Part shown: one piece after another, positions 10,329-25,953 of the stretch
Layout: every line of letters begins with the position of its first letter
Position numbering within the stretch: the stretch's first letter is position 1
Source: Thermodesulfovibrionales bacterium
GTDB taxonomy: Bacteria > Nitrospirota > Thermodesulfovibrionia > Thermodesulfovibrionales > UBA6898
Assembly: GCA_044450345.1 (NCBI GenBank)
Contig: JBIOIY010000044.1
Span: 1 to 25,953 of the forward strand
DNA length: 25,953 nucleotides
Direction: 5' to 3'
Notes under the pieces: model-generated
Database searches by the model: none
The model's input: only the letters and a program-made list of their open reading frames with translations
What the model was told of the DNA's origin: nothing
Program-made: the position numbers and the translations under genes

Positions 10329-11219
10329 TTAATCTTCGTCTTTGGAAGAGAGCGGGTGGGCCTTATCGTAGATGTCCATCAGATGAGTAATGTCGAGGTG
10401 AGTATATTTTTGTGTCGTAGACAGCGACGCATGTCCCAAGAGTTCCTGGATAACCCTTAGGTCGGCGCCCGACTGCAAGAGATGCGACGCGAAGGTATGT
10501 CTGATAGTATGAGGACCAATACTGCCGCTGATCCCGGTCTGCTTTGCATATTTCACGACTATCCTTCGTATGCCCCTGTCTGACAGTTTTTCGCCCCTGT
10601 TGTTTAGGAATACAGCCTTGTTTCTGCGTTTGACAAGCATTTTTTCGACCAGATAGGATTTTATCGCGTCAACCGCCTTGGATCCGACAGGGAGAATACG
10701 CTCTTTCTTTCCCTTTCCCTTTACTTTAACCAGCCCTTCCCTCGTATTGATGTCTTCCGTGGTAAGCCCTGCTATCTCACTCACCCTCAGGCCGCTTGAA
10801 TAAAGAAGTTCGAGTATCGCCCTGTCCCTCGCCCTCATTAAGCCTATGCCTTTTGGTTGTTCGATGAGAGAAAAAGTCTCATCGACCGATAGAAACTTGG
10901 GCAGGAGTTTTTGGGCCTTTGGTGTGGACACAAGCTTTGCCGGGTTCACCTTAATATATCCCTCCCTGTGGAGATATTTAAGGAAAGAGCGTATCGCCGC
11001 AAGCCTCCTTCCGGCCGTCGTCTTGTTGAGGCCGTTCTTTATCTGCCGGGCAACAAACCCCCTCACGTCGATCATCTCTACCTCTTCAGGTCCCTTCTTT
11101 ACAAATTCGGCGAACTCTTCAAGGTCCTTTTTGTAGGCCCTGAGAGTATGAGCCGAGGCCCCTTTTTGGAGGTCGAGATACCTAAGGAAATTGACGATAT
11201 GCCCTTTCATGTCAGACAT
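10329..11219 (-). CDS. xerC: Tyrosine recombinase XerC
   Basis: SAM-like N-domain, GLRVSE, KGKG.KER, HTIRH, LGH, TQKYTH; trmFO-xerC-hslV-hslU context; start uncertain (11222/11219/11210). Confidence 0.9.
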   Translation of the reverse strand: MSDMKGHIVNFLRYLDLQKGASAHTLRAYKKDLEEFAEFVKKGPEEVEMIDVRGFVARQIKNGLNKTTAGRRLAAIRSFLKYLHREGYIKVNPAKLVSTPKAQKLLPKFLSVDETFSLIEQPKGIGLMRARDRAILELLYSSGLRVSEIAGLTTEDINTREGLVKVKGKGKKERILPVGSKAVDAIKSYLVEKMLVKRRNKAVFLNNRGEKLSDRGIRRIVVKYAKQTGISGSIGPHTIRHTFASHLLQSGADLRVIQELLGHASLSTTQKYTHLDITHLMDIYDKAHPLSSKDED

Positions 11220-11275
11220 CATTTCTCCAAATGGCACGCCCGCCAAAAATGTATGATATGGTATTTAAGCGGCTT

Positions 11276-20870: not shown

Positions 20871-21125
20871 CATTCACCTCCCACAGAAATATTTATTCAT
20901 GCCATCAATGTAAACAATTATTGTGAAGAAATGTTGAAATTCCGGTATCTTTCGCTTTTTTTCGAGATTTACCTGGAAATGGTGAAAGATTGCTTTTTTC
21001 CTTTACGCCTAACGTTCTTGCGTCTCAACGTGTTTTTTTCAGTTGCCGGTCTGCAATTTCCATGGTAAAAGAATAGTAGGGTTACACATCATGGATTCGG
21101 CAAAACAAAAAAAGGGAGGAGTACC

Positions 21126-21605
21126 ATGGACAGAAGAGATTTTCTGAAAAATACGGCAATAGGGGCTTTATCGATGACTGTCGCGGCGGAGGCCTTCGGC
21201 GCCGATATCTTTTACCCTACAGGTGTCGACAAAACTCTGTTCGAAGCATTCAACAGGGCAAAGGACCCGGCGAACAAGACGCCGCTTGAGAAATCGCACG
21301 CGCCGTTCATTACAGCTCCCGGCAAAATAAAGGCGGGAGAGCCCTTCACGGTCGAAGTAAGTGTCGGTGAGAACCTGCATGCCATGGGTCCGGCACACTG
21401 GATCGAGTATATAGAGCTTAACATCGGCAATGAGCCTGCCGGAATAGTAAGCTTTCAGTCTAAAGGATACCTGAAACCGAAGGCAGCATTCACTGTAGTG
21501 CTGACGAAAGAGGCCGCACCTAACGGCAAGGTCACACTGATCGCCCGTCAGCGGTGCAATCTCCACGGCCTCTGGGAAAGCGTCATGGATGTGGAAGTGT
21601 CATAA
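21126..21605 (+). CDS. Superoxide reductase-like (desulfoferrodoxin ferrous-iron domain) protein with Tat signal
   Basis: MDRRDFLK Tat motif; ligand pattern EKSHAP, HAM..AHWIEYI, CNLHG; SD GGAGGA. Confidence 0.85.
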   Translation: MDRRDFLKNTAIGALSMTVAAEAFGADIFYPTGVDKTLFEAFNRAKDPANKTPLEKSHAPFITAPGKIKAGEPFTVEVSVGENLHAMGPAHWIEYIELNIGNEPAGIVSFQSKGYLKPKAAFTVVLTKEAAPNGKVTLIARQRCNLHGLWESVMDVEVS

Positions 21606-21616
21606 TTACGTACTTC

Positions 21617-21643
21617 GTAGGGGCGTATCGCGATACGCCCCAC
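21617..21643. repeat. REP-like palindrome GTAGGGGCGTATCGCGATACGCCCCAC
   Basis: Second copy of the 8277 element, 11 nt after the SOR-like stop codon. Confidence 0.75.
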
Positions 21644-21683
21644 TATTATAATCATAGGTGTCCGCCATATATCTAAAGGGTCT

Positions 21684-21731
21684 GTCATTCCCGCGCCATG
21701 CCTGCCGGCAGGCAGGAAGGCGGGAATCCAG
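21684..21731. repeat. GTCATTCCCGCG-AAGGCGGGAATCCAG palindrome interrupted by a CCTGCCGGCAGG-type palindrome
   Basis: Outer parts 21684-21695 and 21717-21731; insert 21696-21716; uninterrupted relative at 22070-22096. Confidence 0.8.
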
Positions 21732-21745
21732 TCTTTATTGTTAAT

Positions 21746-21949
21746 GTGGGGCGTTGCCCCATACCCCAGTTACCTTTCTTACATGCCTAAGAAAGGGTAA
21801 CCCAAAGAACGCACCCCGACGAAAATTTCATACGGCTGCGCCGGTTGCCCTCGCTAAATTTTAGAACTCGCCCCTAACATCGGTGCTCAGACATGCTAAA
21901 ATTTTTAACGCTCCGGGCGACCGTGCTCGCCTAAATTTTCGAAGGGGCC
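21746..21949. repeat. About 200-nt highly structured intergenic element (MITE-like or ncRNA)
   Basis: Stems: 21769-21780/21789-21801, 21820-21828/21933-21941, 21842-21850/21915-21923 and 21856-21864/21896-21904. Confidence 0.65.
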
Positions 21950-21984
21950 AAGAAGTATCCGATAATCATTATTGATTGTGTCTT

Positions 21985-22096
21985 GTCATTCCGGCTCGCC
22001 TGCCTGCCGGTAGGCAGGTCCGGAATCTTTCCCAGTCCCCTCCTTGGAGGGGTGTAGGGATGGGTGGCCGTCATTCCCACGCAGGCGGGAATCCAG
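21985..22096. repeat. Cluster of short palindromic repeats (nested GTCATTCCGG..CCGGAATC, CCCCTCC-TT-GGAGGGG, GTCATTCCC..GGGAATCCAG)
   Basis: 21985-22028 with insert 21999-22018; 22037-22052; 22070-22096. Confidence 0.8.
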
Positions 22097-22559
22097 GTTC
22101 CATTTATTGTCTTTGACTTTTTCATTTCACTATTCACCTTTCACGTCTTCTTGATTCTTAAGCAGACTGCTGATCGCTGACAGCTGATAGCTTTTGTTTC
22201 CCTCCTTGCTATTTACTTCTTACTACTCGCTGCCTTACAATGATTTGAGCGGATCGGGGGATCTTCTGCCCTCATTCACGCTCGCCTTATCGGAAATGCA
22301 GGTCTCAAAAGAGAAGGGGATGTTCAATCAATTGATATTGCCGCAGCAGTGGAGGGCTGCAATAAACGGCGGTAGCCTGCCTGCTGTCCGTGTGTAGGGC
22401 CTGCGCTATGAAGGCGGAACTCCTGAAGTTTTTTTTTCGACGTGTCCACCATGATCCCCATTTTTTACGACTATTCGTATTTGGTCGGTATTACTATAAT
22501 ATACGGAATACGGTAATAGACATATGTTGATTTTAAACCTTTTTTTTCTCTAATATTTT

Positions 22560-22624
22560 TTGAATATGCTATATTGATAACGAAAAAGGGGAAAATCAGG
22601 AAGTTCGTATATTAATTGTTAAGT
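22560..22624 (+). other. attI-like site and candidate cassette promoter
   Basis: GTTAAGTTC at 22618-22626 is the exact reverse complement of GAACTTAAC ending cassette 1. The upstream sequence is AT-rich with no attC fold; extended -10 TGCTATATT at 22567-22575. Confidence 0.55.
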
Positions 22625-22629
22625 TCAAA

Positions 22630-23241
22630 ATGAAAAAGAAAATAATAAAAACATTACTTATTCTACTGGTGGTCATAATCAGCTTTGTTGCTGGTTTCAC
22701 CACATCTGAATACCGGTGGAAGAAAAACCGACCTATCCGGGCATCCATGGCTGCTTTCTCCGGTACATGCGCTTATCAAAAAAAAGATATTCCAGAGGCG
22801 TTAGAGGACCTTTATGCAGCAGTTTACCTAGATCCTTCAAACTCGGATGCTCATCTCGGACTTGGGTCCTTATTTTATGAGCAAGGATTATATGATTTAT
22901 CGCTCCACGAATATGGAAAATACCTACAAAATCCAACAAACGGAATGCTCACGATATTCTCTGAAAAAAAATATAAACAACAATCAGAGAGAATGGTAAA
23001 GCGTGACGTCGCATGGGTCTACTGTTATATCGGCGATATTTACGAAAAGAAAGGCGATAAGTCGAAGTCAATAGAGAATTACGGCAAGGCGCAAAAGAGC
23101 GACCCAGACTTTAAAAAGTACATTGAGACCTATATCAAATTCATAAACGACATGAAAGTAAAAGAGCCAAGACATATTAAAAAGCTCGAACTTTTGACCA
23201 AAACTCTCACAAGAATCAAAGAGGCGGAAAAAGGAACTTAA
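22630..23241 (+). CDS. Membrane-anchored tetratricopeptide-repeat protein (gene cassette 1)
   Basis: N-terminal TM; TPR-like LDPSNSDAHLGLG..Y and YCYIGDIY...A...DP; the stop codon lies inside the attC R'' box. Confidence 0.8.
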   Translation: MKKKIIKTLLILLVVIISFVAGFTTSEYRWKKNRPIRASMAAFSGTCAYQKKDIPEALEDLYAAVYLDPSNSDAHLGLGSLFYEQGLYDLSLHEYGKYLQNPTNGMLTIFSEKKYKQQSERMVKRDVAWVYCYIGDIYEKKGDKSKSIENYGKAQKSDPDFKKYIETYIKFINDMKVKEPRHIKKLELLTKTLTRIKEAEKGT

Positions 23242-23323
23242 CAACCGGCTCGACCAGATGGCGAATAAGCTCGGCGGGTTTTGCAAGGGTGGTTGCCGCC
23301 ACTGGTCAGCCACATCGTTGTGC
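23236..23323 (+). other. Integron attC site 1 (88 bp)
   Basis: R'' ACTTAAC-5 nt-L'' GCTCGACC ... L' GGTCAGC-6 nt-R' GTTGTGC; extra C and A on the top strand (bottom-strand extrahelical G and T). Confidence 0.9.
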
Positions 23324-23356
23324 ATCAAATAGATTAATAGAAAAGGAAGGCGTCTA

Positions 23357-23983
23357 ATGCCAAATATCCCCTCCATATGTTTAAATCCAGCTTGTGGCCT
23401 TATCTTCCCATCTGGCGTTATTGTTGAACGCACGCCAGGAGCAGAAAAGGCTTCAGAGCCAGAATATGTTGAATTTATCAATTGCAGTGGCGCAGCATGT
23501 CCAAAGTGTGGCTCCGAAGGAAGAATCCCTAATGGCCGATATGATATTTTCGGTGAGACTCTCTTCGCCATGCTCCACGATGTCGCAGACACAGAAATAA
23601 TCAGGCAATCAATCGCGGTCATAAAAACCAACATCGCCGCGCAGGCAACGCCAGAAAAGATCGCAGAAGAGATGACAAAGGCCGCGCCTGAATTACAAAC
23701 CCTGTGGGACTGTATCCCAAAGACCAGAGTAGAAGCATACGCTTTTATCACGCTGTTGATTTTAGTTCTAACAAAATTCATTGATTATTATCCTTCTCTA
23801 AAGTCTCCAAATGCGAATACAACTGTTATACAACAGCAAATCATCAATCAATCTTTTCAGCAATTCTACGCTCAAGATATTCCAGCGAAACCCGCCATCC
23901 AACGAGATAGCCATAATAAAAAGAAGAAAAAACAACAGCGAAAAATGAAAAAAGATACTCAGCGGAAGTCAAAGAAAAAATGA
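23357..23983 (+). CDS. Hypothetical protein with zinc-ribbon-like Cys pairs and Lys-rich tail (gene cassette 2)
   Basis: CLNPAC...CPKC, a hydrophobic stretch and a basic C-terminus; SD AAGGAAGG; cassette start GTTGTGCAT matches its end ATGCACAAC. Confidence 0.75.
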   Translation: MPNIPSICLNPACGLIFPSGVIVERTPGAEKASEPEYVEFINCSGAACPKCGSEGRIPNGRYDIFGETLFAMLHDVADTEIIRQSIAVIKTNIAAQATPEKIAEEMTKAAPELQTLWDCIPKTRVEAYAFITLLILVLTKFIDYYPSLKSPNANTTVIQQQIINQSFQQFYAQDIPAKPAIQRDSHNKKKKKQQRKMKKDTQRKSKKK

Positions 23984-23999
23984 GCACTAATAGACCCAT

Positions 24000-24087
24000 G
24001 CACAACAATCGCATCCAGCCGAGTCGCAATAAGTGCGATTCGTCTTCACTTTTACTGTACGCTCCCGGCTGATGCACGGCGTTGAAG
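24000..24087 (+). other. Integron attC site 2 (R' followed by an IS-like end)
   Basis: R'' GCACAAC-5 nt-L'' CATCCAGC ... L' GCTGATG-6 nt-GTT(24081). Confidence 0.88.
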
Positions 24088-24101
24088 CTGTAGAAAAAGT
24101 C
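24084..24101. mobile_element. Solo IS/MITE terminal repeat directly after the attC2 GTT
   Basis: GAAGCTGTAGAAAAA is 13/15 identical to the MITE left end GAACCTGTAGGAAAA at 24901; no matching right end found. Confidence 0.55.
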
Positions 24102-24205
24102 TAAAAAAGGCTGGAAGAACGCCATTCTGATTTGATAAGATGCTAGTGGTGGGGTCACCCATTGTCCCTTGTGAAGATCCAATCAAGTAAAAAAAGGAGG
24201 AAAAG

Positions 24206-24808
24206 ATGGAATATGATTTTCTCATAGACACTTATGATACTGAACGACTAAAAATTCTCGGTGTTTGGAGCACGTTCATGGATGATGATCTTTCAATTCG
24301 GCCTCATCCATTGGATAAAAGAGACAGAAATGCCCTCGAACACATGGTGCATCAGTGTTTGAGTGAAAATAGGTGGTTTTGCAATATGTTCGGCATTGAT
24401 GTTGGAGCGCCTCCCTTGCCTGATCCGGAAACACGCATCGAGTTTATAAAGCGGTATGCTGAAGATAGTGGAAAGCGGCTTGCCGCTCTTAAGAAAAAGG
24501 ATAAAGCCTGGTGGGAAATTGAGGCATCCTTTTTTGATGTTATAAGAACAAGAGCTTGGATTCTGCTGAGAAGGATAACACATACTGCGCATCATCGGGC
24601 AGAGCAGGGAGTTTTGCTTAGATTGTTGGGGAGAGAAAACTACAGTGTATATGGACCGTCGATTGATTCAGGGTGTTTGCCTGAACACGGGGCTGTTACC
24701 ATATATCCATATCCTGACATTGAATCTCTTATTAAAGGAGAGTCTGCAGGTGGGCAGAAAGCGAAATTACCGGGACCTGGAGATAAGCCATGCACAGAGC
24801 GTCCGTAA
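24206..24808 (+). CDS. DinB-family protein (gene cassette 3)
   Basis: EHMVHQCLSE and RRITHTAHHRAEQ (His triad), SVYGP; SD AAGGAGG. Confidence 0.85.
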   Translation: MEYDFLIDTYDTERLKILGVWSTFMDDDLSIRPHPLDKRDRNALEHMVHQCLSENRWFCNMFGIDVGAPPLPDPETRIEFIKRYAEDSGKRLAALKKKDKAWWEIEASFFDVIRTRAWILLRRITHTAHHRAEQGVLLRLLGRENYSVYGPSIDSGCLPEHGAVTIYPYPDIESLIKGESAGGQKAKLPGPGDKPCTERP

Positions 24809-24857
24809 TGTTGAGAAGAAGCACTCTAGTGAGTGGAGTCAAATCGACTTTTCACTC

Positions 24858-24904
24858 ATTTAACAAAAAATGCACCAGATAAACTGGTGATTTTCACGTT
24901 GAAC
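24858..24904 (+). other. Integron attC site 3, ultrashort (47 bp)
   Basis: R'' ATTTAAC-AAAAA-L'' ATGCACCA-G-ataaa-C-L' TGGTGAT-TTTCAC-GTT(24898). Confidence 0.75.
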
Positions 24905-25118
24905 CTGTAGGAAAACCCCTGAATGAGCATGATTTTGATGGTTCAGGTGGTGGCAGTAAAGTCTCGGATCGAAATAGAATGCGTGATGGAAATGCGTCAG
25001 AGCCACAATGATAGGCCTTCCCGCATCTCATTGGGAACAAATGATTCGGTCAGTAGTAAATCGCACTGTGACGCTTCCGGTGCGTCGGGGTCTAAAAGGT
25101 GACTTATCCTACAGACTC
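24901..25118. mobile_element. 218-bp MITE inserted at the attC3 GTT, flanked by GTT direct repeats
   Basis: Left end GAACCTGTAGGAAAA; right end reverse complement GAGTCTGTAGGATAA (12/15); GTT at 24898-24900 and 25119-25121; no transposase. Confidence 0.75.
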
Positions 25119-25154
25119 GTTAGTGGCAAAGCCCATATTCGGAGGACAGAATTA

Positions 25155-25763
25155 ATGTCACCCGACAAATACAAATCATATCAATCACTCAAGGACAGTG
25201 AACTGCAAAATGCCGACTATGAAATCCTATATAGCAGCCGTCCATCTAAATACATAGTCATGGCCCCTCATGGCGGCGGGATTGAACCGGGTACGACAGA
25301 GATTGCTGAAGCCATCGCAGGTGATACCTTTAGTTTTTACTCGTTTTCGGGCACCAAAGAGAAGGGCAATAAGGTTCTTCATATCGCAAGCGAACGATTT
25401 GATGAGCCAATCGGTCTCACTTTGGTGAAATCTTCAGGCACGGCCGTTACTGTACATGGGTGTGAAGGAAATGATCAATATGTATGTCTAGGGGGATTGA
25501 ATGATGAACTGGTAGAAAAAATATCGGCTTCACTCAAAAAAGCCGGTTTTCCGGTGAAAGAAGAAGTCCAGTCTCATTTGGCGGGGAAACAGCCCAATAA
25601 TATTTGCAATCGTTCTAAAGAGGGCAAAGGTGTTCAAATCGAGATTAGTCACGGCCTTAGAAAGTTAATGATAAAAGGGATGAATCGTACAGAAAGAAAG
25701 GAGAGAACAGGAAAATTTGTCGTATTTATTCAAGCTATTCAGGATGTTCTTAGCAATTATTGA
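25155..25763 (+). CDS. Poly-gamma-glutamate hydrolase family protein (DUF867/PghP-like), gene cassette 4
   Basis: APHGGGIEPGTTEIA, HIASERFDEP, TVHG, NICN, GVQIEIS; SD GGAGG 25141, ATG 25155. Confidence 0.85.
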   Translation: MSPDKYKSYQSLKDSELQNADYEILYSSRPSKYIVMAPHGGGIEPGTTEIAEAIAGDTFSFYSFSGTKEKGNKVLHIASERFDEPIGLTLVKSSGTAVTVHGCEGNDQYVCLGGLNDELVEKISASLKKAGFPVKEEVQSHLAGKQPNNICNRSKEGKGVQIEISHGLRKLMIKGMNRTERKERTGKFVVFIQAIQDVLSNY

Positions 25764-25953
25764 ATCCCGAGCTGTGGAACGAAGATATTGGTGAGTAAAA
25801 TGATATGTAATAGCATCAGCGTCCGACTGTTTTTTGCATAAAGCAATATAACTCATTGAAAGAATAATATAATAATGACATTTCGACCTGTTACCGACTT
25901 GAAATATTTTCAGCCAGTCGGTCATCGTTCCGGGGACACCCGGAAGGAGACGA

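Follow-up and report, generated by a model that had tools for sequence, protein, structure and literature searches.

Near the right-hand end of contig JBIOIY010000044.1, from a Thermodesulfovibrionales bacterium, a short array of gene cassettes carries what we read, with a probability of roughly 0.9, as two relics of one lineage of IS1182-family insertion sequences (IS) specialised on the GTT triplet of integron attC sites: a 218-bp MITE (a miniature transposable element with inverted repeats) and a truncated left end of about 63 nt. The window that we analysed is the entire contig of 25,953 bp, part of a 3.19-Mb assembly in 86 contigs that is 91% complete. According to this reading, autonomous elements of about 1.8 kb with one DDE transposase gene would insert in the R' core of attC, at the GTT crossover of the integron integrase, always with their left end (the 5' side of the transposase gene) against the attC hairpin and hence in the same sense as the cassette genes, and would duplicate the GTT. 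The features concerned are the following.

24084 to 24146, plus strand: truncated left end, about 63 nt, of an IS1182-type element, directly after the GTT of attC2
24858 to 24900, plus strand: attC3, a minimal hairpin of 43 nt resembling attC (R'' ATTTAAC, GTT at 24898-24900), the target of the MITE
24901 to 25118, plus strand: the 218-bp MITE, with left inverted repeat 24901-24915 and right inverted repeat 25104-25118
25119 to 25121, plus strand: second GTT (putative duplicated target), then AGTG, the start of the next cassette

The original prediction had described an element of 218 bp with imperfect 15-bp ends and GTT on both sides, and its coordinates proved right: GTT (24898-24900) precedes the left end GAACCTGTAGGAAAA (24901-24915), and the right end TTATCCTACAGACTC (25104-25118) runs into GTT (25119-25121) and AGTG. 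Reverse-complemented, the right end reads GAGTCTGTAGGATAA and agrees with the left at 12 of 15 positions. Both ends have counterparts elsewhere, the left 20 nt being 95% identical to an end in genome G012 and the right 25 nt 92% identical to the right ends of MITEs in three more genomes (G020, G021 and G013); in addition, 40 nt of the element are 85% identical to a MITE of about 220 nt that stands in tandem behind a full-length IS in a genome of another Nitrospirota family (G225). Internal blocks also match this last MITE, and apart from that likeness the resemblance of the window's 218-bp unit to its relatives is limited to the ends. A 59-aa open reading frame (ORF) within the unit has no Pfam match. 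The unit has the marks of a MITE in that its ends match autonomous inverted repeats, it lacks coding capacity and GTT lies on both sides; as regards multiple copies or movement in trans, it is single-copy in its own assembly, and related MITEs were found only in other genomes. Within the window the end motif (up to 3 mismatches) occurs 8 times against 4.8 expected, and 7 of 100 shuffles attain 8 as well; this count is not significant by itself, and the significance of the motif rests on the other genomes. A regular-expression search of the bacterium's own genome returned 17 matches; the window accounts for all the real ends among them, three in number.

The second relic begins where the 15-mer GAAGCTGTAGAAAAA (24084-24098), directly after the GTT of attC2, agrees with the left end of the 218-bp element at 13 of 15 positions, as had been predicted. 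Over 68 nt, positions 24079-24146 share 98.5% identity with a full-length copy's left end in a genome of the same genus (G040), after which the sequences diverge, and because this match breaks off after 24146 we regard 24084-24146 as a truncated left end of the family. In metagenome contigs the 24080-24146 stretch runs on, at loose ends, into the transposase leader. Another left-end remnant lies on contig C3 of the same assembly, after a weak attC-like site.

The autonomous partners come from relatives; a transposase of this kind is absent from the window and its assembly. Of 54 genomes of the bacterium's taxonomic family, 21 hold the 17-mer GTTGAANCTGTAGRAAA with at most 1 mismatch, at 39 places in all (22 exact), with 19 places for a reversed control pattern, and downstream of many copies lies an ORF beginning MARYKEYDYSQGKF. 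Full-length copies with a transposase, which the original prediction had suggested looking for in relatives, number five (1808-1822 bp); they have left end GAAGCTGTAGAAAAAGTC and right end GACTTTTTCTACAGACTC, which agree at 16 of 18 positions, GTT on both sides, and a single transposase ORF between 18-bp terminal inverted repeats of the form GA(A/G)(G/T)CTGTAGAAAAAGTC. In two of them the ORF is intact, with 516 and 526 aa respectively. The 516-aa transposase (L041:1756-3306) scores 282.8 bits on the NCBIfam IS1182 model NF033551, over a cut-off of 270, and matches the Pfam domains DDE_Tnp_1_6 (PF13751, E 2.1e-21), DUF772 (PF05598, E 9.9e-15) and DDE_Tnp_1 (PF01609, E 1.9e-11); the DDE catalytic class is assigned from these domain matches, DUF772 being the N-terminal domain. 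IS1182 elements range from about 1.3 to 2 kb. The curated model, the combination of DDE and DUF772 domains and the terminal inverted repeats around one ORF thus place the partners in IS1182, and a DDE-type family with IS1182- or IS5-like ends is what had been foreseen.

The same ends are shared by deletion derivatives (674, 870 and 1081 bp) and by short forms, namely MITEs of 157-159 bp in three genera and of about 218 bp, and one 34-bp stump. A pairing script that required a right end followed by GTT paired 14 distinct elements of 34 to 1822 bp, and GTT precedes the left end in all 14; a further pairing of 113 bp (L052), with a poor right-end match, has TTA after its right end. Tandem arrangements of the forms IS-GTT-IS and IS-GTT-MITE are present. 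Recent movement within one genome is apparent in G015, where two copies at different sites are 99.78% identical over 1820 nt, and copies in different genomes are 76-83% identical. We infer that such a transposase, acting in trans, mobilised the window's MITE. Three full-length copies lie within 9 kb at G301:C38:139332-148403 (L106), at least two of them head-to-tail with only GTT between. A 2535-bp contig filed under a Bacillota metagenome-assembled genome (L091) holds only an attC and one copy, with 83% protein identity to Nitrospirota copies, and is probably a mis-binned fragment.

Because our first search pattern itself contained GTT, we ran two tests blind to it. For the first, a 16-mer end pattern without GTT was searched in the 54 genomes and all flanks were fetched, giving 59 places in 25 genomes (reversed control, 30). 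GTT precedes 19 of 20 left-end types (GAAGC, GAACC or GAGGC) and follows 22 of 28 right-end types (GAGTC or GAATC), three of the remaining six being left-end variants preceded by GTT; matches of the GAT and GAAA types, which look like chance, have GTT at neither flank. The second started from loci picked only by transposase similarity (52-86% identity), which were contributed by 31 genomes out of a phylum-wide sample of 401; here GTT stands before the left end in 16 of 16 cases and after the right end in 10 of 12. At right flanks, the looser form GTT-R-N-R-Y is fitted by 30 to 35 of 37 sequences per position. Orientation is fixed as well, with the left end always against the upstream hairpin and the element in sense with the cassettes in 4 of 4 intI-linked arrays. 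Target choice would seem to read attC, through the sequence C-GTT-R.RY, the hairpin or both.

To describe the left flanks we aligned 12 of them, which yielded 15 consensus pairs, 11 with compensatory changes, and two unpaired positions, presumably where the extrahelical bases of attC are expected. From these 12 flanks, with the element's own bases left out, we built an attC covariance model, R1, which is distinct from that of IntegronFinder. It replaced a cruder hairpin-energy test (Mann-Whitney p = 3.5e-7) because taking the minimum over many lengths favours long stretches. Run on five sources, R1 found 31 sites: attC1 and attC2 of the window, both outside its training set, and 29 in four loci from relatives, which form regular arrays beside intI on the strand opposite to it and of which 3 are training sites. 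Outside training it found 7 more element-adjacent sites, and 6 more in other families and Pseudoalteromonas. The target sites are thus attC sites in the integron sense, imperfect R''-L''...L'-R' palindromes with unpaired bases in arrays beside intI. An integron integrase (IntI) above the curated cut-off occurs in 34 of the 54 genomes, and in 4 genomes the distance between the element and intI is 1.5 to 6.4 kb. Both blind searches, together with covariance-model flanks adjoining intI, bear out the predicted targeting of the attC GTT.

The right flanks are cassette starts. At 10 loci 1.1 kb or more of sequence follows downstream; in 7 of them the 7-mer beginning at the second GTT exactly complements an R''-like 7-mer farther downstream, in 2 it does so with one mismatch, and in 1 it has no such partner (chance about 0.1 per locus). 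On this comparison both GTTs are native, one from attC and the other from the next cassette, as a 3-bp target duplication predicts. Comparison between genomes thus shows the family, its transposase class, its fixed position and orientation, an attC on the left flank and a cassette start on the right.

The GTT would then be a true 3-bp target duplication, as had been proposed, made by staggered DDE cleavage; the native flanks agree with this, and the duplication is deduced from them because no precise empty allele was found. The MITE-less alleles that the original prediction had hoped for were seen neither in the 54 genomes nor in the metagenome contigs searched: a DNA search with window 24150-25813 against the former returned only right-end 30-mers and no orthologous cassette, a scan of metagenome contigs with 30 nt taken from where the hydrolase cassette begins gave 0 matches, and among contigs of four public metagenome runs compared with 23900-25800 none had exactly the MITE-less site. 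Two MITE-carrying alleles from peat read A at 25119, giving ATT for the right-hand GTT. In one contig from a soil run (X4), 24900 is followed at once by 25762, so that the MITE and the hydrolase gene are missing (861 bp, 24901-25761), with TTGAA at both edges; the resulting GTTGAAT pairs 7 of 7 (one G-T) with the attC3 R'' ATTTAAC. This skip may be a microhomology deletion, an integrase event at a secondary site or the loss of a fused unit.

The array in which the relics lie extends from 22618 to about 25813 and holds four same-strand ORFs, encoding a TPR protein, an unknown protein, a DinB-family protein and a poly-gamma-glutamate hydrolase, with imperfect palindromes ending in GTT between them. 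Its remaining features are these.

22618 to 22624, plus strand: start of cassette 1, GTTAAGT, the remainder of R' and exact reverse complement of the attC1 R'' ACTTAAC (23236-23242)
23236 to 23319, plus strand: attC1, canonical and without insertion, GTT at 23317-23319 (model R1, 61.2 bits, E 4.9e-14)
24000 to 24083, plus strand: attC2, canonical, GTT at 24081-24083 (model R1, 61.7 bits, E 3.5e-14)
24206 to 24808, plus strand: DinB-family ORF, cassette 3 (Pfam DinB, E 5.4e-9)
25156 to 25763, plus strand: poly-gamma-glutamate hydrolase ORF, the cassette after the MITE (Pfam Gamma_PGA_hydro, E 2e-63, in the frame 25008-25763)

The attC2 R'' GCACAAC (24000-24006) exactly complements the start of cassette 2, GTTGTGC (23317-23323), and such complementarity of R' and R'' at cassettes 1 and 2 is the signature of integron cassettes. 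attC1 shares 86% identity with one attC of the array that adjoins intI in G040 and folds with z = -2.11; the fold of attC2 reaches a z of only -1.54, and 15 of 200 shuffles fold equally well. The status of attC3, which had been called an attC outright, is mixed: it is an attC-like hairpin whose fold (-7.9 kcal/mol, z -3.54) beats 200 of 200 shuffles, and with filters off it scores 18.9 bits on R1 (E about 9e-4), the aligned parts being R'', some of L''/L' and CGTT, but at 43 nt it is not canonical. The original 5' boundary of cassette 3 is gone along with the remainder of the IS. The Gamma_PGA_hydro match begins at residue 55 of the 25008-25763 frame, and the hydrolase ORF likely starts at the ATG at 25156, behind GGAGGA, judging from this layout.

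IntI above the cut-off is absent from the window's own assembly, where there are only Xer-like matches. A 305-aa tyrosine recombinase on the minus strand (10329-11246) scores 69.9 and 46.6 bits on the integron-integrase model against a cut-off of 265 and is Xer-like, not IntI. In G040, of the same genus, the homologue of window 22248-22380 adjoins an intact intI, and for this reason the integrase was probably lost in the window genome. The non-coding stretch 22130-22380, just upstream of the array, is 88% identical to intI-adjacent DNA of G040 (L086 4943-5072) and is repeated on contig C3 (G000:C3:160960-161130), where again an attC-like site and the left-end remnant follow; this likewise suggests that the integrase was lost in the window genome.

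Other observations concern the surroundings of the array. The last 140 bases of the contig (25814-25953) are identical to the last 140 (or 138) of contigs C3, C48, C61 and C66, with unrelated sequence upstream. They have the look of one edge of a multi-copy element at which the assembly broke off, and the assembly lacks the continuation of that element. An Rfam scan of 20900-25953 gave only a weak CRISPR-repeat match (25888-25934, E 0.17). Hairpins resembling repetitive extragenic palindromes (REP), of the type GTCATTCCCGC...GCGGGAATCC, lie at 21684-21731, 21985-22027 and 22070-22096. In a promoter scan of 23950-25250 the MITE had no sigma-70-like site on the plus strand, and the scan found no more sites overall than in shuffles.

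Several observations weigh against the proposed attC-specialised lineage. True-looking ends without GTT exist (L023, L059, L061, L070, L071, L107 and L111), and the strict form GTTRRRY fits just 12 of 37 right flanks. At 7 of 24 distinct GTT-flanked left ends (L010, L011, L018, L029, L030, L035 and L072) there is no model attC, and the crude hairpin-energy test parted sites from random GTTs only moderately, with 6 of 24 sites below the controls' 5th percentile. In the window itself the MITE is single-copy in its genome with repeats agreeing at only 12 of 15 positions, its target attC3 is non-canonical, shortened and weak at 18.9 bits, and the assembly, at 91% completeness, holds neither an IntI over the cut-off nor a transposase of this kind. 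Finally, a precise empty allele was found for no copy in the family genomes and metagenome contigs searched.

We considered three other explanations, which we reject on the following evidence. That the 218-bp unit and its relatives are integron cassettes, ORF-less or transposase-bearing, which the integrase moves with boundaries at G|TT and whose inverted ends form a recombination site on circularisation, is very improbable. Element boundaries do coincide exactly with cassette boundaries, the circularised ends would make a palindrome around GTT, and the family is almost confined to arrays; against this, R1 finds an attC neither inside 24901-25118 with filters off nor where the full-length copy in L086 has its right end, GTTGAAG has no complementary R'' ahead of the right end, and seven insertions have no recognisable attC. 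The unit therefore has no 3' attC of its own with an R'' pairing to its 5' end, as an ORF-less cassette should. A DDE transposase with matching inverted repeats, and MITEs and deletion derivatives that keep only the ends, likewise count against this reading.

Slighter still is the chance that the 218-bp element is not mobile at all and is a conserved 5' untranslated part of the next cassette whose likeness to IS ends is accidental. Its single copy, its 12 of 15 matching repeat positions and the unremarkable motif count in the window would suit such a leader. So would the metagenome contigs, in which the element stays with the neighbouring genes at about 97% identity. Both ends, however, fit the family consensus beyond the 15-mer, in G012, the three MITE genomes and the MITE of G225, and GTT stands on both sides as in every other paired member. 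Least credible is a single 1035-bp composite, bounded by the left end that starts at 24084 and the right end that finishes at 25118, with the DinB gene as passenger, for although GTT flanks both of these ends and the site after DinB is a non-canonical attC, two peat runs hold the block 24161-25748 (DinB, attC3, MITE and hydrolase, about 97% identity) behind different upstream sequence without the left-end remnant, the remnant 24080-24146 occurs in other contexts in the same runs, and the inner junction 24898-24915 is a complete insertion signature by itself.

Returning to an IS1182 lineage specialised on attC, a bolder extension, which we consider possible but doubtful, would make it an integron parasite that mimics the recombination site. 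The left end, which starts with GAR, would restore the R' box as GTT-RRR (GTTGAAN in the original prediction, which had suggested that the site may stay active), leaving the site open both to the integron integrase and to new copies of the element, and the integrase could then excise the element and the next gene as a fused cassette and insert it anew. In this manner a DDE transposon would ride the cassette pool between phyla (Nitrospirota and Gammaproteobacteria), and its transposase may read the folded attC hairpin instead of duplex sequence. The IS-GTT-IS and IS-GTT-MITE tandems and the 861-bp indel are compatible with an element that travels with the next cassette, without being proof of it.

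Beyond the close relatives, protein and flank comparisons show the family to be spread across Nitrospirota and into Pseudoalteromonas. A tblastn search of plasmids found the nearest relatives in Pseudoalteromonas, at 44-45% protein identity and with an identical layout, attC-GTT|GAGGCTGTAGAA...TTCTACAGGCTC|GTT, within an attC array. Together with a protein atlas it gave three marine gammaproteobacterial records, two from Pseudoalteromonas and one from Catenovulum adriaticum (44.5% identity), and otherwise generic IS1182 relatives at 23-26%. Distant IS1182 members in Nitrospirota (29-34% identity) have other ends and other targets. One unrelated IS1182 member, in G439 (L128), is inserted in a REP-like hairpin, within its loop, and has GAA at either flank.

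Full-text literature searches returned, in the excerpts they retrieved, no paper tying IS1182-type elements or MITEs to attC targeting, and the excerpted portions of 10.1101/2021.07.26.453812, PMC9137128 and PMC11023631 hold nothing relevant to such a link; the family may already bear an IS name in ISfinder. Two specialised mobile lineages are known to be attracted to attC, the IS1111-attC group and the group IIC-attC introns. The family described here would be a third, using a classical DDE transposase and sitting on the very nucleotides where the integrase cuts. Insertions of this kind can fuse, freeze or re-route cassettes and supply homology for rearrangements of arrays, and the MITEs and end-remnants are easily mistaken in annotation for ORF-less cassettes or conserved cassette leaders. 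A tractable model for structure- or site-directed transposition is also to be had in a DDE transposase whose single 3-bp target is orientation-specific and lies next to a hairpin, and Pseudoalteromonas offers culturable hosts with apparently intact copies.

The setting of the relics resembles a cluster of attC sites lacking an integrase (CALIN), in that the array is short, reaching from 22618 to about 25813, and has two attC sites that are canonical and one that is minimal, with no IntI over the cut-off in the assembly; that term, however, names the setting and not the element. Among IS1182 elements, the partners share with IS1272 of Staphylococcus a score over the IS1182 cut-off, DUF772 and DDE domains, terminal inverted repeats and a single ORF. 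IS1272 is reported (PMC5678879) to target inverted-repeat structures without target duplications, whereas the lineage in the window inserts in a single orientation at a fixed target, the GTT of the attC R', with a putative 3-bp duplication. A preference for hairpins may nevertheless be a habit of the IS1182 family, given IS1272 and the REP-like hairpin of L128.

The original prediction had held the element to be unlike the known attC-targeting elements, and this agrees with what the relevant parts of the literature describe. The IS1111-attC group (ISPa21, ISPst6 and ISKpn4, of IS110/IS1111) likewise consists of insertion sequences with orientation-specific homing to attC, but as set out in sections of PMC3001079 and PMC11187229 these have a DEDD transposase guided by a seekRNA and subterminal repeats, and insert near the 5' end of attC in antisense. 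The window family has a DDE transposase of IS1182 type and terminal repeats, lies at the 3' GTT crossover, runs in the same direction as the cassettes (4 of 4 intI-linked arrays) and spawns MITEs. The group IIC-attC introns, a monophyletic mobile lineage that is also specialised on attC, insert near its 5' end on the bottom strand, opposite to cassette transcription, according to the pertinent part of PMC3001079. They are retroelements built of a ribozyme and a reverse transcriptase, whereas the Rfam scan of 20900-25953 detected no intron, our Pfam searches returned no reverse-transcriptase domain, and the window family occupies the 3' GTT in the sense of the cassettes.

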